Assembly: GCA_018830945.1 (NCBI GenBank)
Contig: JAHJRD010000093.1
Coordinates: forward strand, 14,495-78,494
From: Nanobdellota archaeon
Lineage (GTDB): Archaea; Nanobdellota; Nanobdellia; SCGC-AAA011-G17; GW2011-AR17
Length of the DNA: 64,000 nt
Reading direction: 5' to 3'
A program made the translations under genes and the position numbers. Every line of letters starts with the position of its first letter. Within the stretch, counting starts at the first letter, position 1. Shown here piece by piece: positions 4,596 through 42,552 of the stretch. A model generated the notes under the pieces. It was given only the letters and a program-made list of their open reading frames with translations. It searched no databases and was not told the DNA's origin.

Positions 4596-4940
4596 TTACA
4601 TCCCCTCCTGCGTTGCAGGAATTCCATATATTCCGTTTTCATCGCATGACAGCTTTTGAAGGCTTCCGTCAGGCAGCCTCACGCTTGGGCCTCTTTCAGC
4701 AAACCCCTCGCATGTCAGCTCAAGCTTGTTCAGCTCAGCAATTTGCCTGGATTGTTCTCTGGATTCTTGCCCAGATAGAAGAAGACCGCCTGCACCAAGC
4801 CCTGCTATGAGTATAGTATAAGCTGCTGCTTTTCTAAATGGCATATACAGTTTGCCGCCAATAGAATACAATCCGTCCCTCTCTGGTGTTGCTACCTCTG
4901 TCTTCACTTCCGGCTTATCGCCCTTCTTGTTGGATTCCAT
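4596..4940 (-). CDS. membrane hypothetical protein
   Basis: Central TM helix (AAAYTILIAGLGAGGLLL). SD AGGAGGGG upstream. Confidence 0.4.
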   Translation of the reverse strand: MESNKKGDKPEVKTEVATPERDGLYSIGGKLYMPFRKAAAYTILIAGLGAGGLLLSGQESREQSRQIAELNKLELTCEGFAERGPSVRLPDGSLQKLSCDENGIYGIPATQEGM

Positions 4941-5009
4941 TTTTTACCCCCTCCTGTGTTTTGAGAGTCAGGAAAACTCTTATTTGTTACTATTTAGTGA
5001 TACTAACTA

Positions 5010-5130
5010 GTATATAAAACTTTCTGTGAAAAGTTGCAAAAGTGCCCTCTAATCGCCGTATAAACCCTGAAAACAAAGTTTTATAGGCTAATAAATCTCC
5101 CCTCGTAAAAGCTCCCTTGAAGAATAGGCC
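5010..5130. promoter_or_regulatory. upstream element family 1, copy A (contains palindrome CTTTCTGTGAAAAG)
   Basis: Similar to sequences at ~5570-5700, ~7571-7700 and ~39275-39400. Lies 5' of minus-strand gene 4596..4940. Confidence 0.3.
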
Positions 5131-5132
5131 AT

Positions 5133-5558
5133 CTAGCTTTCCACAATCTCTTTCAGCTTTTGTATAATCCACTTGAATTCAAGCTCATTCTGCTTAAGGT
5201 AATTGCCGCTTACATTAAATCCCCTGTAGCCTATATCGTGCCTTACCCTTCTTAATTCGTCAATTTTCATTGTTTCATATTCAAAATCCGGCGCGTGTTC
5301 CACAAGGTAAGAAATGAGGCATATATGGTTTGAGCAGTCAAATCCTTTTTTGTAAAGCAGGGCAAACATAATCTCCTTCATTATTTCGTAATACGCTTCA
5401 ACTTTAAGCGCTGAAAATTTAGAATCAATCTGCCTGTCCCAGAATTCAAAGCGCAGCATTGCCATGCTAATAAGATGGCTGGCGCGCTCTGCATCAGGCA
5501 CAATGCGTGCAACAGCACCCTGCTCAATGCATTCTTTCCAATTCATCAGTTTTTCCAT
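5133..5558 (-). CDS. HEPN domain protein (toxin-like partner of upstream MNT)
   Basis: All-helical ~140 aa with an R..H-type motif (ELRRVRHDIGY), immediately downstream of a nucleotidyltransferase gene. Confidence 0.6.
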   Translation of the reverse strand: MEKLMNWKECIEQGAVARIVPDAERASHLISMAMLRFEFWDRQIDSKFSALKVEAYYEIMKEIMFALLYKKGFDCSNHICLISYLVEHAPDFEYETMKIDELRRVRHDIGYRGFNVSGNYLKQNELEFKWIIQKLKEIVES

Positions 5559-5569
5559 CGGGAAATTGC

Positions 5570-5700
5570 TTGTAAAAGCCCTTAATAAAGCTTTTCCATA
5601 AAATTCCGCAAATATTTCAGCAAAGCTGGAAAAGTTTCAGCATTGGCGGAAAATCAGCGCAAATATCTACTGCTTTCTGAAAGATTTACAGCCTGTCTAA
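5570..5700. promoter_or_regulatory. upstream element family 1, copy C
   Basis: TTCCGC...GGCGGAAAAT inverted repeat plus CTGCTTTCTGAAAG palindrome. About 70% identical to copy D. Confidence 0.3.
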
Positions 5701-6222
5701 TTTCACAAAACCATATAAGATTATTCCGTTAAGCACATTGTTTTGCAGCGGCGAGGCGAGATTCCCTATTTCAGGCTCAAAAATAACGTGGATTTCCCTG
5801 CCCAATGATTTTTCAAATTTTGCCAAATCCAGCTTTGCTTCATGCGCTTCAACAAAAAGGTCTATATCGCTCCCTTTCCGGTAATCGCCTTTTGCGCAGC
5901 TTCCGTAAAGGATTATGCAAGAGGGCAGCGCTTTTTCCCATACATATTGTATTAGCCCTGACTGGCTTATCTGAAATACAATCTCATTCTTCTTATAAAA
6001 GAGGTAATGCTTGTTTTCAGTGTTTGCGCGGTACGTAGGATAAAGGGTTGTCTTGTTGATTGTTACAAGTTCAAGTTTAACAAAAGGAGTTATATGGTTA
6101 AGCACAGTCGCATGGTTCTGCTTCAGCCTCCTTGCTATTTCCCTTATGGAAAAGCCTGCATCAGGCTCTTCTATAAACAGCTTCAGCATCCTGTAGTCCG
6201 TATTTTCAAAAATCTTATGCAT
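5686..6222 (-). CDS. wHTH-fused minimal nucleotidyltransferase (MNT, Pol-beta superfamily)
   Basis: GS-x9-13-DxD motif (GSCAKGDYRKGSDIDL) with an N-terminal winged-helix region. Confidence 0.7.
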   Translation of the reverse strand: MHKIFENTDYRMLKLFIEEPDAGFSIREIARRLKQNHATVLNHITPFVKLELVTINKTTLYPTYRANTENKHYLFYKKNEIVFQISQSGLIQYVWEKALPSCIILYGSCAKGDYRKGSDIDLFVEAHEAKLDLAKFEKSLGREIHVIFEPEIGNLASPLQNNVLNGIILYGFVKLDRL

Positions 6223-6319
6223 TTTAATTGGTTAATAAAATAACCACCTGGTTAGAATAATAACCATAAGTTAATAAGCTTTGCGGAAGCTGCTTTCCCT
6301 CGTAAAAGCCGCCTTCCAA

Positions 6320-6859
6320 TTACTGCAACAGCCCCTCAACCTTGGTTATAAACTCATCCGCATCTGCAAACGCAGACAAAGCATTCTGCCTTGCAATAGC
6401 AGGAGTCGCATCATACTGCGCAGATTCCCTGTTTGTTTTTGCCTGCGCGAGCTTTGTTATCATCGCCTCGCTTAATGAATAAGCATTTGAAAGGCTGTGC
6501 AGGTGCTTTGCATCAAGCTTCTTCTTAAGCACATAGGCATGTTCAAGCACTGCAAGCGTTGCTGCATGGCTTCTTGACTTGAATGAGATATTTGCGAGAG
6601 CAGCCAGTGCAGAAACATACATTGAATAATAAGCTATTATGACAACCCAGTCGTATGCCTCAAAATCCGAAGGCATGCTTAACATTTCCTTAAAATCATC
6701 TTTATTGGAAATATCCATAAGAAAGGCAGCAAGCGCAAAATTCTTTCTTGCTTTCTTAAGGAAAGGCTGTTTCAGCCTTATGAATGAAACATCTTTTTCC
6801 AGCTGTTCTTTCTTGAAATATATGCTGATTCTTCTCTTGAGCATATATTCCTTTTTCAT
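6320..6859 (-). CDS. HEPN-like domain protein
   Basis: Helical ~180 aa overlapping the upstream MNT by 4 nt. Conserved YY..Y and R-x-S-A-Q-Y region. Confidence 0.5.
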   Translation of the reverse strand: MKKEYMLKRRISIYFKKEQLEKDVSFIRLKQPFLKKARKNFALAAFLMDISNKDDFKEMLSMPSDFEAYDWVVIIAYYSMYVSALAALANISFKSRSHAATLAVLEHAYVLKKKLDAKHLHSLSNAYSLSEAMITKLAQAKTNRESAQYDATPAIARQNALSAFADADEFITKVEGLLQ

Positions 6860-7488
6860 GCAGCCATCTCCCAGAAAAGCTCAAGCCCGTACAGCGGAAG
6901 CCCATACCCCTTTGCCTCTTTTCCTATGTTAAGCCCTTTTGAAGCAAGCATTTTCCTGAATTCAGCAATATCCGCAATGACAGGGCTTACCTTGATGCTA
7001 TGAGAATAGCGGAAACCAGCGCACTGCCTTTCAATCTCTGCCCTTAATTGCTTGTTTTGAATGCTGTCTATTATGAAAAGCAAATCCACATCTGAATCTT
7101 TTGCCGCACCCCCCCTTGCATAGCTGCCAAAAAGTATTATTGAGCGGATGCCTGTTTGAAGATGGTTTTCCATGTTTAGCATCAAATTTTCAGATATTCC
7201 TTTCAGCTTTACATTGCTTTTGAATAACTCCTCTTTCCTTGCAATATCCGCTTCCTGCAGGAAATGCCTTGCCTTTTCGCTTTTTAAGTTAATGAAGCAC
7301 TGCTTTGCCCTGCCGACTTCATTTATTGTTATTATGCCTTCCTTGTGCATTGCTGTCAAATGGTTGTATGCAGGCCTGTACCCTATTTTCAGTGTTCTTG
7401 CAATTTCCAGCATTGTCATCCCCTTATCCAGATTTTTCCTGAACAGCCTGATTATTTTAATTAATGTCTCCCTTCTCATATTATTCAC
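6856..7488 (-). CDS. wHTH-fused minimal nucleotidyltransferase (MNT)
   Basis: GSYARGGAAKDSDVDL motif with an N-terminal wHTH (LEIARTLKIGYRPAYNHL). Confidence 0.7.
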   Translation of the reverse strand: MNNMRRETLIKIIRLFRKNLDKGMTMLEIARTLKIGYRPAYNHLTAMHKEGIITINEVGRAKQCFINLKSEKARHFLQEADIARKEELFKSNVKLKGISENLMLNMENHLQTGIRSIILFGSYARGGAAKDSDVDLLFIIDSIQNKQLRAEIERQCAGFRYSHSIKVSPVIADIAEFRKMLASKGLNIGKEAKGYGLPLYGLELFWEMAA

Positions 7489-7570
7489 TTAATGAATAAT
7501 GTTATTCACTTTTATAAATGTTTGCTTTTTCAGGCTGACTTTTTTAATAACAGATAGTTATTTCTTAACT

Positions 7571-7700
7571 GCTTAATAAGGGTTTTCCCTGAATTTCCGC
7601 AAAATTTCCACCAAAACCGGAAACTCTTATGGCTAAAGCGGAAAAGCATAAGCAGAAGCCATGTTTCAGGCAGTGATTTCCAAAGTTTCTGAAAGCGAAT
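7571..7700. promoter_or_regulatory. upstream element family 1, copy D
   Basis: TTTCCGC...GCGGAAAA inverted repeat plus GTTTCTGAAAGCG. Lies 5' of the MNT gene that starts at 7488. Confidence 0.3.
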
Positions 7701-7763
7701 TTTGCTTCCCCTCGGAAAAGCCGCCCTCGCTTCAATCAATAAAATGTTTTATTTGCAATAGAA

Positions 7764-9521
7764 TTACTTTCTGCCTTTTTTGGAAGCAATGTGGGCTCTT
7801 GTTTCTGTCCTTCTCACGCTTCTCGCCTCGCGCCTTGCCACTTTTTCTGCCATTTCTCTTTTCTTTTCCGCTTTCCTTGCCAGTTCCTCTGTATGCTGCG
7901 CAGCTTTTTCAGCAACCTCTCTCCTCATCCTCTCGCTCTCTTCTCTCTGTCTCAGTGCTTTTTGCTCAGCCCTTGCCCTTTCAGCTTGAACTCTTGCTTC
8001 CTGCGCAGCTAACTCTGTTCTGCGCTCAACTTCCTGCTCTCCCTTTTTAAGATGCTCTTCCAGTTCTTGCTTCTGCCTTGATTTTTCTTCTGCTGTTAAA
8101 ACTCTCTTTTCGCCAAACAAGCGCTTTACAATCCCTCTTCTTTCCTGGGTGCCCCTCTCCAATCTTGCCTTTGCTTCCTGCTCTTTCCTTAAGTATTCCT
8201 CGTGCGATTCCAATGCAGGCCTCTCCATTCCTTCTTTCCTCTGCCTCTCCAATTCCTGCCTTCTCTCATACTCAAGCTCGCTTCTTCTGAATTTCTCGCC
8301 GCGCAATCTTCCTTCTTCCCTTGCAAGATTATTTAATCTTCTTCTTTCTGCTCTTTCCTGCCTTGCCAGTCTTCGCCTTTCCCAGAAACCAGAAGCTTTT
8401 TCTCCAGGCTTTGGTTTTCCTTTCCCCTTTGCCTCGCGCCTTCTCTGCTTTGCCTCGCGTTTTTCCTGTTGCCTTTGCTGTTTGAGCCTTTCTTTTTGCA
8501 GTTTTGCCTTTTGTTTCTCCACTCTGATTCTTGCTCTTTCCAGCCTTCTTTCAGGGGCTGCCCAGTCTAAAATCCCCCTTCCTGCGCCCTTCACCTTGTC
8601 CTTTCCGGCTTCCCACCAGTTTCTTGTGCCATGCTTAAGCCAGTCTCCTGCCCTGCCAAGCCTGTCATGCCACCTTTGTCTCCTTGCAGCTATCCTCTCA
8701 GCCTTCCTGGCCAGCCTTGCCTGCCTTTTTTGAGCCTTTCTCTCCAGCCTTGCCTGCCTGTTTTCAGCCTTCCTTGCCTGCTTTGCTTCCAGCTTAAGCT
8801 TTACCTTCTCCTGCTTGCCTCCCAGCCTTGCCATCTTCTGCTCATGCCTTCTCTCTCTCCACCTGTCAAACAAGCCAGGCCCTTTCTCTGGCTTTGCGCC
8901 GCCTTCTCCGCCTTCCCCTCTCTTGCTCCCTGAGAGGAGATATATTATAAACAGCACAACAAGTGCAATAAGCAATAAAAGCCACCATCTCTGTGAAACC
9001 CAGTAAGTTGTGTCTTCCCACGCTTCAATATATCCGCCGCTCATTCCCATTGAGCGCAGCCAGTATGGGCTTTTCTTTACCTGCAAGACTGAAAATATAA
9101 GAACAGCATATGCAAGCAATGTGAATATCAGCTTTTTCTTTGACAATTTTCCTTCGGGGGTCACATCATCTTTTATGAATATTGTAACAATCGCATAAGG
9201 CAAAAGAGCCAGGGCAGCAATCCATATTACATTGCCCATGCCTGCAATCCACACCTCTGGCATGAACTTCATTGAAATCAGTGCAAGTATGAACGCGACA
9301 AGCATTGCAGCTGTCTGGTGCTCAGGCGGAAACGCCTTCTTAGCCCCAAGCATTAGGAATGAAAACAGTATTACAAACAATCCGATTTTTATGAAAATGC
9401 CGCTTTCTGTGCCTGCGCCAAAAAGCATCTCAGCGCCATCTTCTATAAATCCCTCACCAAGAACAGCTGGAATTGATGCAAGAACAGCGCTCCCTATTGT
9501 AATTGCTTTAATGGCTTTCAT
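7764..9521 (-). CDS. polytopic membrane protein with very long R/E/K/Q/A-rich charged helical tail
   Basis: The N-terminal ~250 aa hold several TM helices. The C-terminal ~330 aa is low-complexity charged (ERRRLNNLAREEGRLRGEKFRRSELEYERRQELERQRKE...). Start placed at the internal ATG (MKAIKAITIG) to avoid an 86-nt overlap with the 9550..10125 ORF. Confidence 0.5.
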   Translation of the reverse strand: MKAIKAITIGSAVLASIPAVLGEGFIEDGAEMLFGAGTESGIFIKIGLFVILFSFLMLGAKKAFPPEHQTAAMLVAFILALISMKFMPEVWIAGMGNVIWIAALALLPYAIVTIFIKDDVTPEGKLSKKKLIFTLLAYAVLIFSVLQVKKSPYWLRSMGMSGGYIEAWEDTTYWVSQRWWLLLLIALVVLFIIYLLSGSKRGEGGEGGAKPEKGPGLFDRWRERRHEQKMARLGGKQEKVKLKLEAKQARKAENRQARLERKAQKRQARLARKAERIAARRQRWHDRLGRAGDWLKHGTRNWWEAGKDKVKGAGRGILDWAAPERRLERARIRVEKQKAKLQKERLKQQRQQEKREAKQRRREAKGKGKPKPGEKASGFWERRRLARQERAERRRLNNLAREEGRLRGEKFRRSELEYERRQELERQRKEGMERPALESHEEYLRKEQEAKARLERGTQERRGIVKRLFGEKRVLTAEEKSRQKQELEEHLKKGEQEVERRTELAAQEARVQAERARAEQKALRQREESERMRREVAEKAAQHTEELARKAEKKREMAEKVARREARSVRRTETRAHIASKKGRK

Positions 9522-9549
9522 TTTGATGATATTGTTATATTGTTTGGAT

Positions 9550-10125
9550 TTAAAAACCTTCCGAGTAAATTCTCTTAAACCCGTAATCTGCTTTCCATGT
9601 GTCAAGGAAAGAGCGGGCTTTTTCAACAGACTCATTAGGGATAATCATTGCGCCCCTGCCGATTCTTTTTGCATTTATATCCTTAAGGAAACTTTCCCTG
9701 CCCCCTGTGCCGTTTAATGCATGAGAGAATATTTGCTTTTGTGATAAAGAAAGCCCCTTAAGGCTATATTCTGCAAGCACAAATGGCTCTAATCCCATCA
9801 GTTTTGCCACAAACCCCTTGTGCCTTATGCTGTAAGCTTCATGGAATATGCTTTTCCATAATTCCCTGTCTGCCAGCATAAGCGCAAACCGCGTGCGCGT
9901 GAAATGCGCGCTTAGGCCTGCCTCTTTTTTAAGAAAAGCCGCTATCTCTTCAGTAAGCGATCCATTGCTTCCTTCCATTGACAAGCAAATATCAATATCT
10001 CCCGGTGTATCTTTGCCCTTGACAAACGAGCCGAATATGAATATGTCTTCCACCCCAGGCCTTTTGAGGAAATGGCTCATTCCGTCAAAGAGCTTTTGCT
10101 TTTTCTTTAATTGCATTTGCTCCAT
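9550..10125 (-). CDS. nucleotidyltransferase (Pol-beta superfamily)
   Basis: GSFVKGKDTPGDIDI motif. Confidence 0.65.
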   Translation of the reverse strand: MEQMQLKKKQKLFDGMSHFLKRPGVEDIFIFGSFVKGKDTPGDIDICLSMEGSNGSLTEEIAAFLKKEAGLSAHFTRTRFALMLADRELWKSIFHEAYSIRHKGFVAKLMGLEPFVLAEYSLKGLSLSQKQIFSHALNGTGGRESFLKDINAKRIGRGAMIIPNESVEKARSFLDTWKADYGFKRIYSEGF

Positions 10126-11789: not shown

Positions 11790-12190
11790 TAAAATTTAGG
11801 GCATCGGATGTGTTCAAGGTAGATTTAGAAAGTACCCTGATATTAAATAACCAAAGCAGTAGATACAGCGACGGCATTGTTGCGCAGGATTTAAGGAATT
11901 TTCTTGAGGCTTATTGCATTTCCGTTCGCAATCCAAGTGGCGAGCCTTTACATGGAGCATGCGCTGACTGCCAAGACTGGAGGGGGAATAAGCATGTTCG
12001 GACGAGAAGCACCAGTATACGCCCGCCAACAAACGGACACATCTATCGTGTTGAGGCAAGGCAGGGTGCGGCAAGGGATGTATGCGAAGCTTATCATTTT
12101 AGCTTTGTCAATGATGCTGAAGCAAGGTTTGTATCAGAGAATGGAGAATATTATGTCTACATACGCCCGGACCTCCGGGGTGTAGTTTCT
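11790..12190 (+). ncRNA. candidate structured ncRNA, possibly SRP (7S) RNA; alternatively a 140-aa hypothetical CDS (11774..12196)
   Basis: Locally GC-rich compared with its surroundings. Three long ORFs in different frames and strands overlap here (11774..12196+, 11904..12185+, 11814..12074-). It contains CAAGGCAG ... GGGATGTA, which are the same 8-mers in the same order as SRP RNA domain IV (E. coli 4.5S CCAAGGCAGA...CCGGGAUGUAGC), plus a GAAGCA motif. Confidence 0.3.
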
Positions 12191-13488: not shown

Positions 13489-14391
13489 TTATGATTGCAA
13501 TGCATTAAACGCATTAAGAAAAGAAGCAGCTATTGTCTTATCCCTTATAATTACCATATTCTCGTCATTGTTCTCATTGCCGTTCTGAGTTGGGTTATAG
13601 CTTCCTGTAATGACAGTCTCATTGTCAATAATGAAAACCTTGTGGTGCAGTACGGCCTTTTCATAGACTTTAACATCAAGCCCTGCTTTTTCCAGTTTAT
13701 TATAAACACTCCACTTGCTGTTCTGCGCCTTGTCAAAAAAGCCCCTTACAATAACGCCTTCCTCTTTCTCCAGCAATTTATCAGCTATTTCATTGTCAGT
13801 AAAGCTGTACACCATGAAGTAAATGCTTTTTTCAGCCTTTTCTATTTCTTCAAGCAGATGCTTTTGGCAGTTGTCTTCAGGGCAGAAAAATACTATTTTG
13901 CTTTTCCCTTTTTTTCCAGCGCCAAATTCCCCTTCCCACAATTCCTCAAATTCATCAGCATATTCTTCAGCTAAACCAGTTGAATGCAATACAACAACAT
14001 TATTCAGGTATGATTTGCTCTTTTCATTAGGGTTAAAGCTGCCTGTAACCACAACTGAATCATCCAATACGCAAAACTTGTTGTGCATTAATCCTCTTTG
14101 ATAAGAAGGTTTTGATTGGCAGTTATCAACAGGGCATTTCTCATCAGCAACAACCCTTGCATTCACTGCTGTCAATGCATTTTGAATTTTATCAGAGTTC
14201 AAAGTGTAGAAAGCGCAATCTGCCTTTTGTGATGAAGCAATTAAAGATGCAATAATTGAAAAGCAGTCATCTGCAGGGCAGAAATATGCTTCTGTCTTGA
14301 TTTGCTCTTCATCTGCATTAAAAGAGCCATATGCAAAAAAGGCAGCTGCAATAAAAACCATAGCTGCAATTACAAACCATAAGAGTTTCAT
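13489..14391 (-). CDS. phospholipase D-superfamily protein with two HKD motifs, membrane anchored
   Basis: LMHNKFCVLDDSVVVTGSFN and LHHKVFIIDNETVITGSYN (HxK..D..GSxN, twice), with an N-terminal TM helix. Confidence 0.65.
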   Translation of the reverse strand: MKLLWFVIAAMVFIAAAFFAYGSFNADEEQIKTEAYFCPADDCFSIIASLIASSQKADCAFYTLNSDKIQNALTAVNARVVADEKCPVDNCQSKPSYQRGLMHNKFCVLDDSVVVTGSFNPNEKSKSYLNNVVVLHSTGLAEEYADEFEELWEGEFGAGKKGKSKIVFFCPEDNCQKHLLEEIEKAEKSIYFMVYSFTDNEIADKLLEKEEGVIVRGFFDKAQNSKWSVYNKLEKAGLDVKVYEKAVLHHKVFIIDNETVITGSYNPTQNGNENNDENMVIIRDKTIAASFLNAFNALQS

Positions 14392-14551
14392 GCAAACACA
14401 TACAGAACTGCTCTTTAAATGCATTTCCCAAAAATTCCATGTGTTTTTTCAGGAAACCAGTAAACTTTCCATAAAGATTGAAACATTTCCAACATCCCCG
14501 GAAAAACGCGTGTTTTTTTGCAGCAACCCATATAAAGCCAGGTTTCACATT

Positions 14552-19359: not shown

Positions 19360-19881
19360 TTAACTTTCTGTGTATATCTCTTCTTTTGTAATATCTATTG
19401 CCTCTTTGCATATTTCCAGCAATTTCTTAATCTTATCTTTTTCTTCTATCTCTTTTTTAACGCCATACTGGTAATCTTCCCTTAAGTCTATGACATTATG
19501 CTCATGAATTTCCTTAAATTCCTCCTGATGCTGCAATGCCATAATGAACTTATTGCCCATTTTAACTTTCCCCTGCGCTTTCAGGTAAAGAATAGCAGAA
19601 ATAGTGCATTCCTGGTTCCTGCTTTCATAGCCTTGCTTGGCTAAAATAGCAAGGAAGCAATGGTAGATTGTATAAAATGCCGCGCTTGCAGACCAGTCGC
19701 TGAAGCCGCCTTTATGAAAATAAGAAATTGCCTTAAAATTATGCTCTGCTTTTCCCAAATGTGAAACTGCCAGTTCCAAATCAGGCTTAATCTCCACAAG
19801 ACCGCGGTGCTTTTTGCCTTCTGCTATTTCTTTCTTTGCCTTGTTTAAGCACCATCTTACATGATTATACGCCTGCGGCAT
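19360..19881 (-). CDS. HEPN domain protein
   Basis: Shares the YHCFLAILAKQGYESRNQ block with HEPN 41352..41831. Overlaps the upstream NTase by 17 nt. Confidence 0.6.
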   Translation of the reverse strand: MPQAYNHVRWCLNKAKKEIAEGKKHRGLVEIKPDLELAVSHLGKAEHNFKAISYFHKGGFSDWSASAAFYTIYHCFLAILAKQGYESRNQECTISAILYLKAQGKVKMGNKFIMALQHQEEFKEIHEHNVIDLREDYQYGVKKEIEEKDKIKKLLEICKEAIDITKEEIYTES

Positions 19882-20524
19882 CTGCTATTGCCTCCACTGC
19901 CTTATTTTGCCCTTTTAATACAATGCCTGTTTTAAGCGCATCAAATACAATCTTGTCCCTGGAAGCAAGATTTTCCTTTAAATCTTTCAAAGTCTGGAAT
20001 ACAGGGTGTACCATCTTAGGCAGTATTTCATTCTTTTGTTCTATCTTCTTCTTCAAAGAGCCATATTGCTCCTTGCTGACAACTATAAGCAAATCAATGT
20101 CATTATAAGGCTTATCTTTTTTAAGAGCTGAGCCGAACAGGATTATTATGTCTGCTTCATTGAACCCTTTAAATTCTTCAACCCACCGCTTATGCTTCAT
20201 TTCCGCCTCTTCCAGCAAAAGAAGCTCTATATTCTTTCGGGTTAGCGTATTGAAGTCGACCCTGAACAGTATAGCCCTGCCAAAAGCAGTTGCAGTTACA
20301 AAATGCTGCTTCTCAAGATTCTTCAATGATTTTAATGCTCCCCTTGGAGTCATGCCTACAAGCTTGCTTATCATCCTCGCATTATACCTGCTGCTGAAAT
20401 CCTTGAAAAGCAGTAGCAGTATGTTCTTTTCTTTTTCTGTTAATGCCATGGGAACCACTAGTTCATATATAGGAACTAATAGTTCTATATAAGCTTTGTG
20501 GTAGAGCAAAGGTCCATTTTGCAT
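19865..20524 (-). CDS. wHTH-fused nucleotidyltransferase (MNT)
   Basis: GSALKKDKPYNDIDL motif. Confidence 0.65.
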   Translation of the reverse strand: MQNGPLLYHKAYIELLVPIYELVVPMALTEKEKNILLLLFKDFSSRYNARMISKLVGMTPRGALKSLKNLEKQHFVTATAFGRAILFRVDFNTLTRKNIELLLLEEAEMKHKRWVEEFKGFNEADIIILFGSALKKDKPYNDIDLLIVVSKEQYGSLKKKIEQKNEILPKMVHPVFQTLKDLKENLASRDKIVFDALKTGIVLKGQNKAVEAIADAAGV

Positions 20525-20554
20525 TCCTTCTTGTCCTTAAGCCAAAGCCGCCAG

Positions 20555-21145
20555 TCAGGCTTCCTCATGCTCCATCTGCCTCCACCATTCTATCCCTGTT
20601 AGAATTATCTTTCCCTTCTTAAGGTTTTTGTAAAACTCTTTGGTAGAGTTGTGAAATGATTCCTTAAATGAAGCATAATCAAGGTAAACAGGGCTTATTT
20701 TTGTGATTGTTCTCATGCTAATCCTATTGGCTGTGTTTTCTATGCCCTTTGCATTTTCTATTTTTTGAAATACAAGCAGTATGTCAATATCCGAATCTTT
20801 TGTATAATCTCCCCTTGCATACGAGCCAAAAATCACTGCTATAACTGGCTTTTCCTCCAATTCCCGCAAAAAATCAATTATCGCTATCCTTGCTTTTGCA
20901 GGAAGCCCCTCAAGCCTTGAATATTCCACTGCATAAAGCATAGGCGTAAGGGCTTCTTTTGAATAATCTATAAAATATCTTATCTGATTGCCTGCTTTCT
21001 GCATTTTTAGCAGCTTGCTTATTTTTTTCAGGGCATAATCAACAGAGGGCATGCTTATCTTAAGCTGCTTGGACAGTTCCCTCTTGTGAATGCCTGGGTT
21101 CCTGTAAACCTGCTTCAATATCCTTATTTCTGTATTGTCATACAT
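20555..21145 (-). CDS. wHTH-fused nucleotidyltransferase (MNT), no HEPN partner
   Basis: GSYARGDYTKDSDIDI motif. Confidence 0.65.
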   Translation of the reverse strand: MYDNTEIRILKQVYRNPGIHKRELSKQLKISMPSVDYALKKISKLLKMQKAGNQIRYFIDYSKEALTPMLYAVEYSRLEGLPAKARIAIIDFLRELEEKPVIAVIFGSYARGDYTKDSDIDILLVFQKIENAKGIENTANRISMRTITKISPVYLDYASFKESFHNSTKEFYKNLKKGKIILTGIEWWRQMEHEEA

Positions 21146-24049: not shown

Positions 24050-25021
24050 ATGGAAAAGCTGGACAAAAAAGACAAACTAATCCTCTATGAGCTTGACAGG
24101 AACGCAAGGCAGCCGCTGTCAGCAATAGCAAAGAAAGCAAATCTCTCAAGGGAAAGCATCCTTTACAGGCTGAAAAGATATCTCTCAGCAGGCATCATAA
24201 GGAATTACCTCACTGTTGTTGACATGCCAAAACTAGGCTACAGCTATTATAAAGTATATGTCAAGCTGCATAACATAACTGAGAAAGAGGAAAAATCTTT
24301 TATCCAGTCGCTCTGCAAAAACTACTATATCTCATGGGTTGCAAGCTGCGACGGCGAGTATTCTTTGATTTTCGGAGCAAAGGCAAAAGACCTATTAGAG
24401 CTTAATTCAGTGCTTAAGGAAATAAGCGGCAAATACTGGAAGTTCATATTAAGGCAGGAAGTCTGCCCCATAATCTCAGCAAGGCACTTCTACAGGGATT
24501 ATCTCATAGGGGCAAAGGCGACAACAGAAAGAAAGATAATATGGGGTGGGAAACAGGAAACAGTGAAGCTTGACGAGAAGAACCTGTTGATACTTGATGC
24601 GCTGTGCGAGAATGCAAGGGCAAGCGCTGTTGAAATAAGCAGGAAAGTAAAGCTGTCTCCGGATTCTGTCCTGCAGCGGATAAAGCAGCTTGAGAAGTCA
24701 GGAATAATAGGGCATTACATGCTTTGGCCTGACGTTGCAAAGCTGAAAGGCATCTACTACAAGGTGCTTGTTTCATTGCATTCAGTTACAGAGGAGAAAG
24801 AAAAGGAGCTTGCCGCATACTGCCATGCAATCCCCAATATTGTTTACATGGTAAATACTTTAGAGCCCTGGCAGCTTGAGATGGACATTGAGGTTGAAAG
24901 CGTGGAAGAGTTCAGGAAGCTGATAAGGGAGTTCATGGCAAGGTTTGCGGATATTGTTTCTGATTACAAGCCCTTGAGCATCTACCGGGAATATAAGTTC
25001 AGGTTCTTTGAAAGGGTCTAA
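24050..25021 (+). CDS. tandem-duplicated Lrp/AsnC-family transcriptional regulator
   Basis: Two consecutive HTH+RAM-like modules (LDKKDKLILYELDRNARQPLSAIAKKANLSRESILYRLKRY... and LDEKNLLILDALCENARASAVEISRKVKLSPDSVLQRIKQLEKSG...). Confidence 0.7.
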   Translation: MEKLDKKDKLILYELDRNARQPLSAIAKKANLSRESILYRLKRYLSAGIIRNYLTVVDMPKLGYSYYKVYVKLHNITEKEEKSFIQSLCKNYYISWVASCDGEYSLIFGAKAKDLLELNSVLKEISGKYWKFILRQEVCPIISARHFYRDYLIGAKATTERKIIWGGKQETVKLDEKNLLILDALCENARASAVEISRKVKLSPDSVLQRIKQLEKSGIIGHYMLWPDVAKLKGIYYKVLVSLHSVTEEKEKELAAYCHAIPNIVYMVNTLEPWQLEMDIEVESVEEFRKLIREFMARFADIVSDYKPLSIYREYKFRFFERV

Positions 25022-25813: not shown

Positions 25814-26545
25814 ATGAACACTTCAATCCTTGAGGACCTGGGGCTTACGCAGGCTGAGATAAAGGTGTATATGTCGCTCCTTGAGCTTGGCGCAAGCACC
25901 GCAGGAAAAGTGCTGGAAAAGTCAGGCTTGCAGAACTCGGTTGTGCATCGCGCCTTGAACAGCCTCATAGAAAAAGGCTTGATTAGCTTTGTGCTTGAAG
26001 GCAAAAGAAAAGCTTACCATGCAGCAAACCCCGAAAACTTCCATGATTTCATTGAAAGCAAGAAAAAGCGGTTTGATGAAATATTGCCTGAGCTGAAAAA
26101 AAAGCAGATGCTTGCTAAAAAAGCAAATTTTGCAGAGGCTTTCAAGGGGAAAAGAGGCATAAGCCAAATGTACATGACATTGTTGAACTCAAAAGGAAAG
26201 GAGTACAACACCTTTGGCGGCGGCTCTGAAGTTACCTATGATGTTATGGGCGAAACATGGTGGAAAAACCTGCATGCAAAAAGGATTGCAATGAAAATCC
26301 CGTGCAGGCAGATATTTGACGAGACAATAAGGGGCTTTGGCAATGAGCTTAACAAGAAGCCGAAAACAAGCATCCGCTTCCTGCCAAAAGAATATGCCCA
26401 GCTGCAGGAAACAGTAATCACAGGCGATTATGTGGGCATAGCAATCTTCACCGGGAATCCCTACGGTGTATTAATAAAAGATAAGATTGTTGCTGACGGC
26501 TACAGAAAGCAGTTTGAAATTCTCTGGAAAAGGGCAAGGAAGTAG
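25814..26545 (+). CDS. TrmB-family transcriptional regulator
   Basis: N-terminal TrmB-type HTH (LGLTQAEIKVYMSLLELGASTAGKVLEKSGLQNSVVHRALNSLIEKGLIS). Confidence 0.65.
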   Translation: MNTSILEDLGLTQAEIKVYMSLLELGASTAGKVLEKSGLQNSVVHRALNSLIEKGLISFVLEGKRKAYHAANPENFHDFIESKKKRFDEILPELKKKQMLAKKANFAEAFKGKRGISQMYMTLLNSKGKEYNTFGGGSEVTYDVMGETWWKNLHAKRIAMKIPCRQIFDETIRGFGNELNKKPKTSIRFLPKEYAQLQETVITGDYVGIAIFTGNPYGVLIKDKIVADGYRKQFEILWKRARK

Positions 26546-29222: not shown

Positions 29223-29402
29223 CTGGAAAAGAAATAAGGTTAAGATTTATATATGTTTGCATAAAAGCCGAAATCTGTATTACCCAAAATAAGAGCTGCC
29301 TTTCTCTGCTAATTCCCTGCATCCAGTTTGTTCAGCGCTTTCGGAAAGCACCTTCACTTCGTTCGGAAAGCTTTATTAATCCAATTGCCATTAGTTTTGT
29401 TG

Positions 29403-35138: not shown

Positions 35139-35193
35139 AAATGGTCTGCAAGCGAAGTGAGTGGACCCTCGAACGAAGGGGGACTGAGTAAGA

Positions 35194-35739: not shown

Positions 35740-35825
35740 GCAGACCTCCGGCGCACGTTAATTAATTTTATTCTTTCAAAATATTAAAAACAATAGAATT
35801 CACAGCGAAGCTCGGCTTATTTCAT
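35738..35825. repeat. intergenic repeat family 2, copy R2
   Basis: AGGCAGACCTCCGGCGCACGTTAATTAATTTTATT...CACAGCGAAGCTCGGC, lying between convergent genes. Confidence 0.45.
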
Positions 35826-38231: not shown

Positions 38232-39248
38232 TTATTTAGGTTTATATGATATTCCTTTTTTCGTTTCTTCAACCACTTTTTTCAGGTCTTCCTTGGAAGG
38301 CAGATTAAGCTGGTATTTTGAAGCAAAAATCCTGCTGCTCATACCGCCAAGCGCGTATTTTACAAATGTATTGTCCTTTTCAGTGCAAAGCACAATGCCT
38401 ATCGGATCATTTTCCCCTTTCAGTGTTTCATTCTCCCTGAAATAGTTAACGTAAAAGTTCATCTGCCCTGCATCAGCATGCGTAAATTTCCCGCTTTTGA
38501 CATCAATCAGGACAAGGCAATTCAAAAACCTGTTGTAAAAGACAAGGTCAACATGATAATGCTCATTATTTATTGAGATTCTTTTCTGCCTTGCAACAAA
38601 TGCATATCCTTTCCCAAGCTCCAATAAAAACTCCTGCAAATGGTCAATCAATGCCTGCTCTATCTGGCTTTCTGTGTATTGGCTTTCTTGCTTGAGATTA
38701 AGGAATTCAAGCACATAAGGGTCTTTTATTTGCTCATCGGGACTTGTTTGGCTGACTTTTGTTTTTGCAAGCAAGGGCTTTTTATTTTTGCTTAAAGCAA
38801 GCCGTTCATATAGCAATGAATGAATCTGCCTTTCGAGTTCCCTGGAATTCCATCCTTGTTTTTCTGCTTCGTTTAGGTAAAATCCTATTGCTTCTTTATT
38901 TTTAATGTAGAGAACGCTGCGATAATGCGTCCATGACAATTTCCTCCGCACTGCGGAGGAATTCCGGAACAGGCAATAAAAGCGCCTCATTCTTTCAAGG
39001 TTTTCCACGCCAAATCCCCTCCCATATTTCAAAGTTAAATCTACTGATAGCTTTTCCAGCAACCTGCTTCCATAGTCAGCCTTTATCTTTCCTTTCTGCT
39101 CAAACTCTATGATTCTTCTCCCTATTTGCCAGTAAGTGCGGGTTATGGCTGTGTTAACAGCAGATGCAGCCTGCCTTCTTCCTTGTTCAAGCAGTTTTCC
39201 TATGTCTGATATGAGCCTGTTATATCCTGCTTTTTGCATTATTTTCAT
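38232..39248 (-). CDS. DUF1016/YhcG-family PD-(D/E)xK nuclease
   Basis: C-terminal HVDLVFYNRFLNCLVLIDVK(SGKF) PD-ExK core, and an N-terminal DUF1016-like helical region. Confidence 0.6.
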   Translation of the reverse strand: MKIMQKAGYNRLISDIGKLLEQGRRQAASAVNTAITRTYWQIGRRIIEFEQKGKIKADYGSRLLEKLSVDLTLKYGRGFGVENLERMRRFYCLFRNSSAVRRKLSWTHYRSVLYIKNKEAIGFYLNEAEKQGWNSRELERQIHSLLYERLALSKNKKPLLAKTKVSQTSPDEQIKDPYVLEFLNLKQESQYTESQIEQALIDHLQEFLLELGKGYAFVARQKRISINNEHYHVDLVFYNRFLNCLVLIDVKSGKFTHADAGQMNFYVNYFRENETLKGENDPIGIVLCTEKDNTFVKYALGGMSSRIFASKYQLNLPSKEDLKKVVEETKKGISYKPK

Positions 39249-39274
39249 TGCTGAAACTGGCTATCAGCTGCTAT

Positions 39275-39400
39275 TCATAAAGCTTTCTGTGAAAAAACGT
39301 GCCTTTTTTCCTAAAAGTTGTAAAAGTGAATGTGTTTGGCGGAAAATCAATAGGAAAAGTGATGAAAAGCAATGAAATTTTCCGCCTTGCCGAAATAGGT
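39275..39400. promoter_or_regulatory. upstream element family 1, copy B
   Basis: GCTTTCTGTGAAAAAAC plus GGCGGAAAAT...ATTTTCCGCC inverted repeat. Lies 5' of the YhcG gene. Confidence 0.3.
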
Positions 39401-39496
39401 TTTTGGCTTTCCGTCGTCAAAGCTGGCATATATACATTAAATGCCACCAACAAAACAGTGAATAGATTTATATCATATTACTTCCTTATTTAGAAT

Positions 39497-40093
39497 ATGA
39501 TTAAGGCAATACTTTTTGATGCAGGCGGAGTAATAATAAAATCAGGGAACCAAATAAATATATTTGCCAAAATTTTCAGGGCAAAAAACAAGCATAAGCT
39601 ATGGGAGAAGATTAACCATTACGTCGGCCCGCTATGCGCCGGGAAAATGTCTGAGAAAGAATACTGGAAAATTATAGCCAAATCAGAAGGAATTGATCCT
39701 AAAAACATACCTGATAATCTTTGGGCCAAAAACTATGGAAAAACAACCAAGATAGACCATAAGATGATGGCATTGATAAAAAGCCTAAGAAAGCAATACA
39801 AAACCATCCTCATCTCCAACACAATCAGGCCCCATGTAATTATCAATAAAAAGAGAGGGCTGTTTGATAATTTTGATGATGTCATAAACTCAAATGAAGT
39901 GCATCTTTCAAAGGATACAAAATCAATTTTTCAGCTTGCCCTGAAAAGAAACCATCTTAAAGCCGAAGAATGCATTTTTATTGATGATATCCAAAAATTT
40001 GTGGATATCGCAAAGTCTGCCGGAATACCTGGAATTTGTTTTAGGAATGTAAGTCAATTAAAAAAAGAGCTTTCCCGTTTGGGAATGTTATAA
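39497..40093 (+). CDS. HAD-superfamily hydrolase
   Basis: Motif I ILFDAGGVI, with a downstream S/T and K, D..D motifs in HAD order. Confidence 0.6.
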   Translation: MIKAILFDAGGVIIKSGNQINIFAKIFRAKNKHKLWEKINHYVGPLCAGKMSEKEYWKIIAKSEGIDPKNIPDNLWAKNYGKTTKIDHKMMALIKSLRKQYKTILISNTIRPHVIINKKRGLFDNFDDVINSNEVHLSKDTKSIFQLALKRNHLKAEECIFIDDIQKFVDIAKSAGIPGICFRNVSQLKKELSRLGML

Positions 40094-40770: not shown

Positions 40771-41262
40771 GTGAAAATGCCTGAAGAAGAAACACCGCAG
40801 GAGGATATGCAAGTTTCTGCCCTTAGCAGGGCTGAAGAAGAGATACCAGTGCCGTCTCCTGTTTCAGCGCCACAAATGTCAATGACGCCTTCTGCTGAGA
40901 TGCCTTCAATGCCAACTCCTCCTTCAATGGGATATGATGAGATGCAGTCAATTGTTGAGGAAATCATTGAGGAGAAATGGAAAGAGATGCTTACAAGCAT
41001 GGGTGACTTGACAACATGGAAAGTGCAGGTTGAGGATGACATGGAAGCTTCAAAGCAGGAGATTCTGAGATTGCAGTCAAGGTTTGACACAATGCAGGCA
41101 GCTATTGTCGGCAAGGTTGGGGAATATGAAGGCTCAATGAGGGACTTGTCAACTGAGATGAAGGCTTTGGAGCAGGTAATGCAGAAGATACTGGAGCCGC
41201 TGACTTCTAATATTAAGGAATTGGGAAGGATAACAGAAGATTTAAGAGGCAGGAAGAAGTAA
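40771..41262 (+). CDS. coiled-coil protein, paralog 2
   Basis: MKMPEEETPQ..., a Pro/Ser/Met-rich linker, then coiled coil. Confidence 0.4.
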   Translation: MKMPEEETPQEDMQVSALSRAEEEIPVPSPVSAPQMSMTPSAEMPSMPTPPSMGYDEMQSIVEEIIEEKWKEMLTSMGDLTTWKVQVEDDMEASKQEILRLQSRFDTMQAAIVGKVGEYEGSMRDLSTEMKALEQVMQKILEPLTSNIKELGRITEDLRGRKK

Positions 41263-41345
41263 AAGCCGGCCTCTGTCACTCCGCAAGCTGCGTTCCGAGG
41301 TCCACTTCATTGCATTCGCAGACCTCCGGCATAATTCTATTGAGA
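41263..41345. repeat. intergenic repeat family 2, copy R5 (inverse orientation)
   Basis: The reverse complement (GGTCTGCGAATGCAATGAAGTGGACCTCGGAACGCAG) matches the 35140..35193 spacer. Shares the GCAGACCTCCGGC core. Confidence 0.45.
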
Positions 41346-42421: not shown

Positions 42422-42467
42422 GTGTATTCTGATAGCATACAGCATATATAAGCTTTGCGTTTTGGAA

Positions 42468-42552
42468 AAGCCAGCCTCTGTCACTCCGCAAGCTGCGTTC
42501 CGAGCCCCACTTCTCTCCGCTCGCAGGACTCCGGCGCACTTCACTCAATTCC
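42468..42552. repeat. intergenic repeat family 2, copy R6
   Basis: AAGCCAGCCTCTGTCACTCCGCAAGCTGCGTTCCGAG...GCAGGACTCCGGCGCAC is ~80% identical to R5. Confidence 0.45.

Follow-up and report, generated by a model that had tools for sequence, protein, structure and literature searches.

A putative lineage-specific cis-regulatory module upstream of a few toxin and nuclease genes in a nanoarchaeal genome

The 64-kb window analysed here (the whole stretch of DNA, 64,000 nucleotides) comes from a metagenome-assembled genome (MAG) of an archaeal Nanoarchaeota (DPANN) lineage. Its minus strand encodes two proteins that combine a winged helix-turn-helix (wHTH) domain with a nucleotidyltransferase (MNT1 and MNT2), a HEPN protein (HEPN2), a HEPN1-like protein and, at a distance, a YhcG nuclease. 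An initial annotation had noticed that regions located upstream of some of these genes resemble each other, and that a short motif recurs behind three genes. The question raised by this locus is what these resemblances stand for, and in our analysis three things are told apart: a generic promoter, operators that are specific to each MNT family, and a module that is shared. To our knowledge, the transcriptional regulation of DPANN archaea is almost uncharted, and their genomes encode very few regulators. We propose, at roughly even chances, that the regions represent a homologous and lineage-specific cis-regulatory module, located upstream of promoters that are themselves ordinary, in front of a few toxin or nuclease genes.

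Colinear modules in the upstream regions

Orthologous loci were collected via homologs of MNT1, MNT2, and YhcG (labelled L002-L009, L073-L082, L084, and L085), and copies of the module were surveyed within the 64-kb window and these fetched relative loci. A search of metagenome contigs with the MNT2 protein alone yielded only one locus, identical to L073. A C-type hidden Markov model (HMM), built exclusively from orthologs outside the window, matched 5565-5688 (nhmmer, E 1e-23) and 7564-7659 (E 5e-12), and it also cross-matched L085 (E 5e-9), L084 (E 2e-6), and a weak site at 14405-14510 (E 6e-5). The Y-type HMM, for which only the sequences upstream of YhcG in L084 and L085 were used, matched 39261-39425 (E 9e-9) and 7569-7721 (E 3e-7), as well as 5567-5653 (E 8e-3) and the C-type spacers (E 2e-6 to 8e-3). 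A profile built without it had first picked up the L084 copy of the module (E 2e-12). The regions at 5566-5688, 7562-7726, and 39261-39427, all recovered by HMMs from other genomes, belong to one family of colinear upstream modules. The region at 5010-5130, missed by the independent HMMs (E 0.9), is a marginal member of this family.

The similarity is less extensive than first described. Four regions had been reported as mutually alignable at about 70%, a figure that does not hold, as the pairwise global identity of those intervals is 37-60%; 60 control pairs taken from other upstream sequences in the window gave 45 ± 6%, with a maximum of 63%. Local alignments scored against dinucleotide shuffles yielded z values of 11.9 for the regions beginning at 5570 and 7571, 5.6 for 5010 and 39275, and 3.7 (marginal) for 5570 and 39275; the remaining three pairs reached only 0.4-2.8.

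In gene orientation, the module consists of a distal box named M1 (GSCRGCTTTKMCGASGGRAAGC), a TTCCGGAA-like box (box2), TTTTCCGSC (box3), a small palindrome similar to GTTGAA..TTCAAC (box4), and TTTGCGGAAWTT (box5, consensus TGAAAWWTTTGCGGAAWTT), followed about 10 nt beyond by the TFB-recognition element and TATA box (BRE/TATA). The same colinear order was found in an alignment of 12 copies from at least seven genomes or assemblies, and the spacing between box5 and the BRE is constant in 10 of the 12. A fixed spacing next to the BRE is typical of archaeal factor sites.

Module C (5566-5688, minus strand) occupies the spacer between the MNT1 stop codon and the start of the HEPN1-like gene. It contains the box2 palindrome at 5673-5683, box3 (GATTTTCCGCCAA) at 5643-5655, box4 (GCTGAAACTTTTCCAGC) at 5625-5641, box5 (TGAAATATTTGCGGAATTTT) at 5600-5619, and the BRE/TATA (GGAAAAGCTTTATTAAG) at 5581-5597. 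The CTTTC-N-GAAAG palindrome, which had been described as common to the regions, exists in its perfect form at 5673-5683 only. Module A (7562-7726, minus strand) is a full-length copy, colinear with module C, with M1 at 7704-7726, box2 at 7685-7695, box3 at 7635-7647, box4 at 7611-7626, box5 at 7591-7610, and a BRE/TATA-like sequence at 7572-7588. It is followed by a decayed start of the HEPN1 type, which is ATG in L073 and ATT in the window, and then by the MNT2 promoter. Module Y (39261-39427, minus strand) lies upstream of the YhcG gene and comprises an M1-like box (GCCAGCTTTGACGACGGAAAGCC) at 39405-39427, box3 at 39336-39348, a box4-like block at 39313-39328, and a BRE/TATA at 39271-39291; it also contains the inverted pair GGCGGAAAAT/ATTTTCCGCC at 39338-39347 and 39377-39386.

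Two further regions show part of this architecture. Region D (5010-5130) includes the promoter of a small membrane protein gene (5010-5044, minus strand), with a BRE/TATA (CACAGAAAGTTTTATATAC) at 5010-5028 and a box4-like block at 5029-5044. What region D shares with module Y is M1 and two short blocks, which BLAST matched to 39277-39295 and 39313-39328, and its orthologs in the relatives diverge. The weak partial sequence at 14405-14510 (minus strand) shows box3, a box4-like, and a BRE/TATA-like element (TTTTTCCGGGG, TTTCAA, and GGAAAGTTTAC) and is situated upstream of a PLD/NucT-like gene (13489-14424).

The module is maintained across considerable divergence. The module C spacer between MNT1 and HEPN1 is kept in every ortholog, down to an MNT1 identity of 59% (L007), and the region upstream of the L085 YhcG gene, whose product is 69% identical, has the same architecture as module Y. 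The distal box of L085, GCCAGCTTTGACGACGGAAA, agrees with the opening 20 nt of the M1-like box (39408-39427) at 20 of 20 positions, and the flanks differ. At these distances (MNT1 at 59%; the M1-like box intact with YhcG at 69%), the conservation of the boxes appears to exceed the neutral expectation. Related modules precede HEPN1-type and YhcG genes in other genomes too, and in three genomes the module is found upstream of YhcG genes with no MNT nearby.

GCGGAAA/TTTCCGC is indeed enriched, as a post hoc test showed. The three window modules contain eight TTTCCG/CGGAAA in 467 nt, that is, 17 per kb compared with 1.2 per kb in other intergenic DNA (14-fold; p ~2e-10, likewise post hoc). Every copy from outside the window has between one and five TTCCG/CGGAA half-sites.

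From the homology, conservation, promoter position, and motif enrichment of the module, we infer that it is bound by a protein and that the genes behind it are co-regulated. The proposal concerns a non-coding module of about 120-170 bp, forming one homologous family in the Nanoarchaeota (DPANN) lineage, and each module carries two to five TTCCG/CGGAA half-sites, in both orientations. Because these half-sites recur in both orientations, cooperative binding by one putative transcription factor is suggested. The factor would bind just upstream of TFB/TBP, and the BRE/TATA beyond box5 would fire a leaderless or short-leader mRNA. The genes that it would co-regulate are few: YhcG, the HEPN1-type gene paired with a wHTH-MNT, and possibly the PLD/NucT-like gene. 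The copy at 7562-7726 is a HEPN1-type module orphaned upstream of the MNT2-HEPN2 cassette, and the MNT genes would run from separate palindromic operators. If this proposal is true, the module would mark out a small regulon whose genes are potentially self-harming or serve in defence, and it could be used as a DNA bait in a search for the regulator.

Archaeal activators bind directly upstream of the BRE. The module resembles the promoters of the Lrp/FFRP family in that it ends in a canonical BRE/TATA about 27-28 nt before a leaderless start and in that several dyad-symmetric boxes lie directly upstream of the BRE. The sites of this family (Ptr2, Ss-LrpB, FL11) are palindromes of 13-15 bp with the form abcdeWWWedcba (PMC2715240). 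Box4 of L003, TTGAAA-GTT-TTTCAA, has a comparable 6+3+6 form, whereas the centre of box4 is irregular or 5 nt long in the majority of copies, and the dominant half-site TTCCG/CGGAA fits none of the four published optima (TvFL3, FL10, FL11, and Ss-LrpB). The window does encode a protein of the Lrp/AsnC type, although its link to the module is hypothetical: the product of 24050-25021 is a 323-aa protein with two AsnC-type helix-turn-helix domains (Lrp/AsnC or NirDL-like). A TrmB-family regulator is encoded at 25814-26545. These two proteins, being among the few transcription factors of the window, are candidates for binding the module. An ortholog of the small wHTH protein that sits beside a weak module-like match in L004 and L007 was not found in the window.

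The module is not a general motif of HEPN/MNT genes. Besides the locus described here, the window contains a HEPN gene at 19360-19881, an MNT gene at 19865-20524, a wHTH-MNT gene at 20555-21145, and a DUF6932/nucleotidyltransferase gene at 9550-10125. An enrichment of the motif upstream of HEPN/MNT genes had been anticipated, and this expectation failed, as neither the 19360-21145 group nor 9550-10125 gave any upstream profile match; M1 is likewise missing from these genes. Some other possibilities were considered for these sequences. A micro-ORF within the module is not conserved, and the sequence does not match ORB-like replication-origin boxes. Viral contigs searched for box5 plus TATA and for an M1-like box gave nothing or a chance match in GC-rich coding sequence.

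Core promoters and displaced cassettes

Part of the similarity between the regions is trivial, because their shared end is the generic BRE/TATA. The conserved end written as TTAATAAAGCTTT is the reverse complement of RAAAGCTTTATWAA, the BRE/TATA consensus of this genome, and CTTAATAAAGCTTTTCC, when read as its reverse complement on the gene strand, likewise gives a BRE and TATA box, GGAAAAGC-TTTATTAAG. Many unrelated genes also have the consensus RAAAGCTTTATWAA about 25-40 nt in front of them, e.g., at 29364-29380, 21181, 51778, and 58092. The shared promoter of the initial annotation can be retained in part: all of the regions end in an ordinary BRE/TATA, and three of them share the homologous module upstream of it, but the BRE/TATA itself is generic.

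In archaeal core promoters, an A/T-rich TATA box follows a purine-rich BRE on the strand of the gene behind it, and about 26-27 nt separate its centre from the transcription start downstream. The sequence GGAAAAGC-TTTATTAA at 5581-5597 has this arrangement, with its centre 28 nt before the HEPN1 ATG (5558), and analogous sites are located at 39271-39291, 6270-6288, 7509-7531, and 5010-5028. The TATA centres lie about 28-30 nt from the ATGs of HEPN1 and YhcG, which is the geometry of leaderless archaeal promoters. Given a promoter whose TATA is centred 28 nt before its ATG, HEPN1 is probably transcribed on its own and probably as a leaderless mRNA. An antisense small RNA produced from a plus-strand TATA was rejected, as the BRE is found on the side of the gene and the orthologs do not conserve the palindromic flank at 5570-5600.

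The island has a documented history of insertion and displacement of MNT-HEPN cassettes. The MNT2-HEPN2 cassette (6320-7488, minus strand), together with the orphan promoter region (6320-7726 as a whole), is an insertion relative to L002, L003, L004, and L007, because in these loci MNT1 directly follows the large membrane gene. In L073, where the MNT2-HEPN2 unit is located between two MNT1 copies, the spacer from MNT1 to MNT2 can be aligned with module A over its whole length. Judging from this alignment, module A is an orphaned HEPN1-type promoter region whose gene was replaced by the MNT2-HEPN2 cassette. A comparable event is seen in L084 (150-440 and 3001-3828), where a YhcG-type module is followed by ATGCAAAAA, the initial codons of YhcG, and then by an inserted DUF4258-MazE pair, a gene of 643 aa, and a YhcG gene without its first ~50-65 codons. 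Two independent cassettes (L073/window and L084) have thus been inserted about +10 nt from the ATG of a module-driven gene. Insertions just after start codons may equally reflect selection for the inactivation of toxin genes.

Several observations weigh against a regulatory module. Box3 has been lost in L002, L003, and L004, and box5 is missing in module Y and region D of the window, so that no box is universal. Only a small set of genes is involved, and the statistics on enrichment were obtained post hoc. The inverted repeat of box3 and box5 with its central palindrome also fits a hairpin. Finally, similarity within one genome may be mere duplication, in a locus where the MNT2-HEPN2 insertion and rearrangement are documented.

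This last point leads to an explanation that we consider rather unlikely, namely that the regions are leftovers of the duplication and rearrangement of toxin-antitoxin (TA) cassettes in a variable island, with only the BRE/TATA being functional. The insertion of MNT2-HEPN2 relative to L002, L003, L004, and L007 is in agreement with such passive paralogy, and so is module A, which the L073 alignment and the decayed HEPN1 start mark as a relic of the promoter of a displaced gene. YhcG and its module are found in different contexts in three genomes, suggesting that promoter and gene move together, and the similarity of region D is only marginal. On the other hand, the boxes are kept at protein identities of 59-69%, where neutral intergenic DNA should be scrambled, and the M1-like box is intact at 20/20 positions amid diverged flanks. 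Moreover, C-type and Y-type modules precede unrelated genes with the same box order, and the half-sites are strongly enriched. If the module were only a relic of rearrangement, the finding would be an ordinary one.

Hairpins, MNT operators, and the M1 motif

A second alternative, which we regard as improbable, attributes the conservation to a nucleic-acid structure, i.e., to hairpins in RNA (3' untranslated region of the upstream gene or antisense) or in DNA, which would serve between cassettes as a processing signal, stabiliser, insulator, or terminator. The box4 palindrome is enclosed by box3 and box5, which are inverted repeats of each other at a distance of about 36-40 nt, and most copies can be folded into a hairpin with two tiers (-11 to -17 kcal/mol; z -1.4 to -3.5). 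In the alignment, 70% of the cells are paired compared with 65.5% after shuffling (0 of 500 shuffles reach this value) and 24-61% when the alignment is slid, and nine cells have changes on both sides where 4.8 are expected (11 of 500). The inner stem occurs as GCTG/CAGC, ATTG/CAAT, GTTGAA/TTCAAC, and GTTGCA/TGCAAC. Nevertheless, RNAalifold found on both strands only a hairpin of 4-6 bp with a consensus energy of -1.5 to -3.3 kcal/mol, and L002, L003, and L004 (3 of 10 copies), the closest relative among them, have lost the outer stem. For the M1 copies named A (within module A) and B, the fold energies are -18 and -19 kcal/mol and the outer stems differ, but copy D and those of L002 and L007 fold differently (z > 0), and L085 keeps the M1 loop with a broken stem. 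No match to Rfam 15 was obtained at gathering thresholds for the whole window or at E <= 1 for 4900-7800 and 39200-39520. The module is upstream of its own promoter and would be transcribed only by read-through.

M1 is the motif that had been proposed as a shared terminator. In gene orientation it reads GGCGGCTTTTMCGAGGGRAAGC, the form originally described being GGCGGCTTTTMCGAGGG. The recurrence of the motif was confirmed: TTCCCTCGTAAAAGCCGCC is found, with at most three mismatches, at 5098-5116, 6295-6313, and 7707-7725 on the plus strand, with none expected in 100 shuffles. In all three cases, a gene on the minus strand has its stop codon 10-40 nt before M1, on the 5' side, and M1 lies between this stop and the next promoter of the tandem island. 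Copy B (AAGGCGGCTTTTACGAGGGAAAGC, 6292-6315, minus strand) lies between the HEPN2 stop and the MNT1 BRE/TATA (6270-6288) and has an orthologous motif in L002 and L007. Copy D (5096-5118, minus strand) lies between the stop of the HEPN1-like gene and the promoter region of the membrane gene, and it is absent at the orthologous position in the relatives. A diverged fourth copy at 39405-39427, previously overlooked, is identical to the 6292-6315 copy at 18 of 22 positions. In L084, the core TTTGACGA occurs three times, with two of the occurrences forming a perfect 13+13 inverted repeat, which looks like a protein half-site.

The position of M1 behind three stop codons, together with its T4 tract, is consistent with a terminator. 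An archaeal terminator is an oligo-T tract, usually of at least five T, placed on the coding strand shortly after the stop codon. M1 offers only T4 (GCTTTT), and no run of T5 or longer lies within 80 nt of the three stops. The Y-type copies of the window, L085, and L084 have no co-directional gene end beside or upstream of M1, so that the motif is also present where nothing needs to be terminated, and M1 is the distal box of full-length modules. For these reasons, and because of the broken stem in L085, we take M1 for the module's distal box rather than for a shared terminator. It may have a side-role as terminator or insulator at the three tandem sites.

The promoter regions of the MNT genes point to operators of another kind. 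Two tandem GGTTA-N6-TAACC palindromes, 20 nt apart from centre to centre (6230-6265), lie between the TATA and the start of MNT1, outside the module, and the window has no other exact copy of them. This element is found upstream of every MNT1-family gene examined (L002-L009, and both copies in L073/L074), with both palindromes exact in most relatives and one exact in L002 and L003. In MNT2, a TGAATAA-NN-TTATTCA palindrome with a third half-site, GTGAATAA (7480-7509), lies between the TATA (7509-7531) and the start codon. It is kept in L073 and L075-L082, with the letters changed and the symmetry intact in L081 (GTGAATAGTATTATTCAC), and 0.04 occurrences are expected by chance in the window. Both palindromes are placed at the antitoxin's own core promoter, as is expected of an operator, and the module is not. 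They are better candidates for autoregulation by the wHTH-MNTs than the module is, and the pair at 6230-6265 is likely to be the true operator of MNT1.

In the model of the initial annotation, the wHTH-MNTs would bind the CTTTC-N-GAAAG palindrome and a GCGGAAAA inverted repeat in the module, with CCCTCGKAAAAGC as a common terminator. The N-terminal wHTH domains of both MNT1 and MNT2, and the location of module C directly after MNT1 and of module A upstream of MNT2, speak in its favour. We consider this model very doubtful, for each MNT family has its own conserved palindromes at the canonical operator position between TATA and ATG. The module does not appear to be the MNT operator, because it lies upstream of the TATA, occurs at YhcG genes with no adjoining MNT (L084, L085, and module Y), and is missing at other HEPN/MNT genes, such as the MNT genes at 19865-21145. 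In the autoregulatory operators of type II/VII TA systems (HepT/MntA-type HEPN-MNT pairs), the helix-turn-helix of the antitoxin binds a palindrome overlapping its own promoter. They have their counterpart in the wHTH-MNT and HEPN pairs and in the palindromes between TATA and ATG of MNT1 and MNT2. The module differs from them, since it is upstream of the TATA, serves HEPN1 from a separate promoter, and also serves the non-TA gene YhcG.

Even more doubtful is the possibility that M1 or the module is an element of recombination or mobility, that is, a cassette boundary, an integration platform (attC/attI-like or MITE-like), or a hot spot. The order M1-[MNT2-HEPN2]-M1-[MNT1-HEPN1]-M1 is suggestive of it, and L002, with no insertion, has a single M1 at the undisrupted site. 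The two independent foreign cassettes, which leave a HEPN1 remnant in L073 and the window and the ATGCAAAAA remnant in L084, lie a few codons after the ATG. In L075 (2002-2018 and 3236-3252) and L082 (4106-4122 and 5337-5353), a pair of GGTGACA-N4-TGTCACC copies flanks an inverted MNT-HEPN cassette; hairpin repeats flanking cassettes recur with genome-specific sequences. Integrons and attC sites, including CALIN arrays with TA cassettes, have been reported in archaeal MAGs including Nanoarchaeota (PMC9668308). As in such arrays, a short repeat, M1, follows each cassette, and the cassettes encode TA systems.

The detailed comparison does not favour mobility. The attC core sites (RYYYAAC/GTTRRRY; R''/R') are absent from five intergenic regions on both strands, and M1 has about 22 nt rather than the 55-140 nt of attC. 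No IntI was found, and no integrase, transposase, or recombinase domain was detected among 56 window proteins scanned (about 20 window ORFs were unscanned). The cassettes bear their own BRE/TATA and operators, unlike those of integrons, and L073 has the MNT2-HEPN2 cassette without M1. The presence of several non-coding copies of 120-170 nt in the intergenic DNA of one genome and its relatives recalls REP/MITE-like repeats. The copies are just 37-60% identical, though, and their orientation and distance to the start codon are fixed; terminal inverted repeats and target duplications common to the copies are absent, with only a 9-nt inverted match between BRE and M1 in copy A. When 596 Gb of contigs, apparently without the source genome, were scanned with the M1 pattern GGSRGCTTTTMCGAGGGRA, 63 hits were obtained, all singletons and all outside related genomes. 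This number is close to chance (about 69, estimated by hand from the degeneracy of the pattern and the size of the collection), and the hits fall in unrelated bacteria, with one archaeal coding hit. Least probable of all, in our estimation, is that the module and M1 together constitute an integron-like expression and insertion platform of DPANN archaea, not of the IntI/attC type, which would capture TA or defence cassettes a few codons behind the start of a module-driven gene, with M1 copies as their boundaries.

Genes of the locus and other repeats

The proteins of the locus carry the source names "Nanoarchaeota / Candidatus Nanoarchaeia archaeon", and a ribosomal L15e gene is situated near the locus. 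The gene assignments of the initial annotation stand by Pfam for MNT1 (5686-6222), HEPN2 (6320-6859), MNT2 (6856-7488), and YhcG, all on the minus strand. The YhcG gene (38232-39248), distant from the other genes of the locus, encodes a DUF1016 nuclease of the PD-(D/E)XK type. The fifth assignment is weaker: the 141-aa protein encoded downstream of module C (5133-5558, minus strand) is only HEPN-like. It gave zero matches in Pfam, NCBIfam, and PDB. It is taken for a HEPN protein only because its gene follows an MNT gene, its predicted structure is all-helical, and Rx4Y, a motif that HEPN2 has too, is invariant. Comparison with the HEPN2 family by hhalign gave a probability of only 8.8%, and a single-sequence AlphaFold model had a pLDDT of 49.6, too low for a fold search. 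The locus is bordered by the small membrane protein gene (4596-4940, minus strand) and by the gene of a 623-aa coiled-coil membrane protein (7764-9635, minus strand).

The 5' untranslated region of the small membrane protein gene (4941-5009) includes a leader of about 55 nt that is strongly conserved in L002, L003, L004, L007, and L075, with the sequence tagtaacaaRtaagagttttcctgactctYWaaacacaggagggggtaa. It contains a GAGT..ACTC hairpin and a strong Shine-Dalgarno sequence, GGAGGGGG, which is unusual among the mostly leaderless genes of this window.

Other repeats were observed in the window. The motif WWTGCCGGAGGYCYGC is found in 3' flanks at 35743, 38208, 40131, and 41321 (intergenic), as well as at 12170 and 42526, and represents a separate repeat family. 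An intergenic repeat of 77 nt, GCCGGAGGTCTGCG...GGAACGCAGCTTGCGGAGTGACAGAGGCYGGCTTTT, occurs at 41261-41337 and 42466-42542 (minus strand) in two copies that are about 83% identical. It has unremarkable fold z-scores and no Rfam match, and its GGCYGGCTTTT end resembles the first half of M1. Finally, the motif CGAACGAAGTGAG/GAAGTGAG lies just upstream of several start codons (17962, 29353, 35154-35171, and 40768), and in L004 (3280-3395) three near-tandem 31-nt reverse-complement copies of it are located upstream of the large membrane gene.

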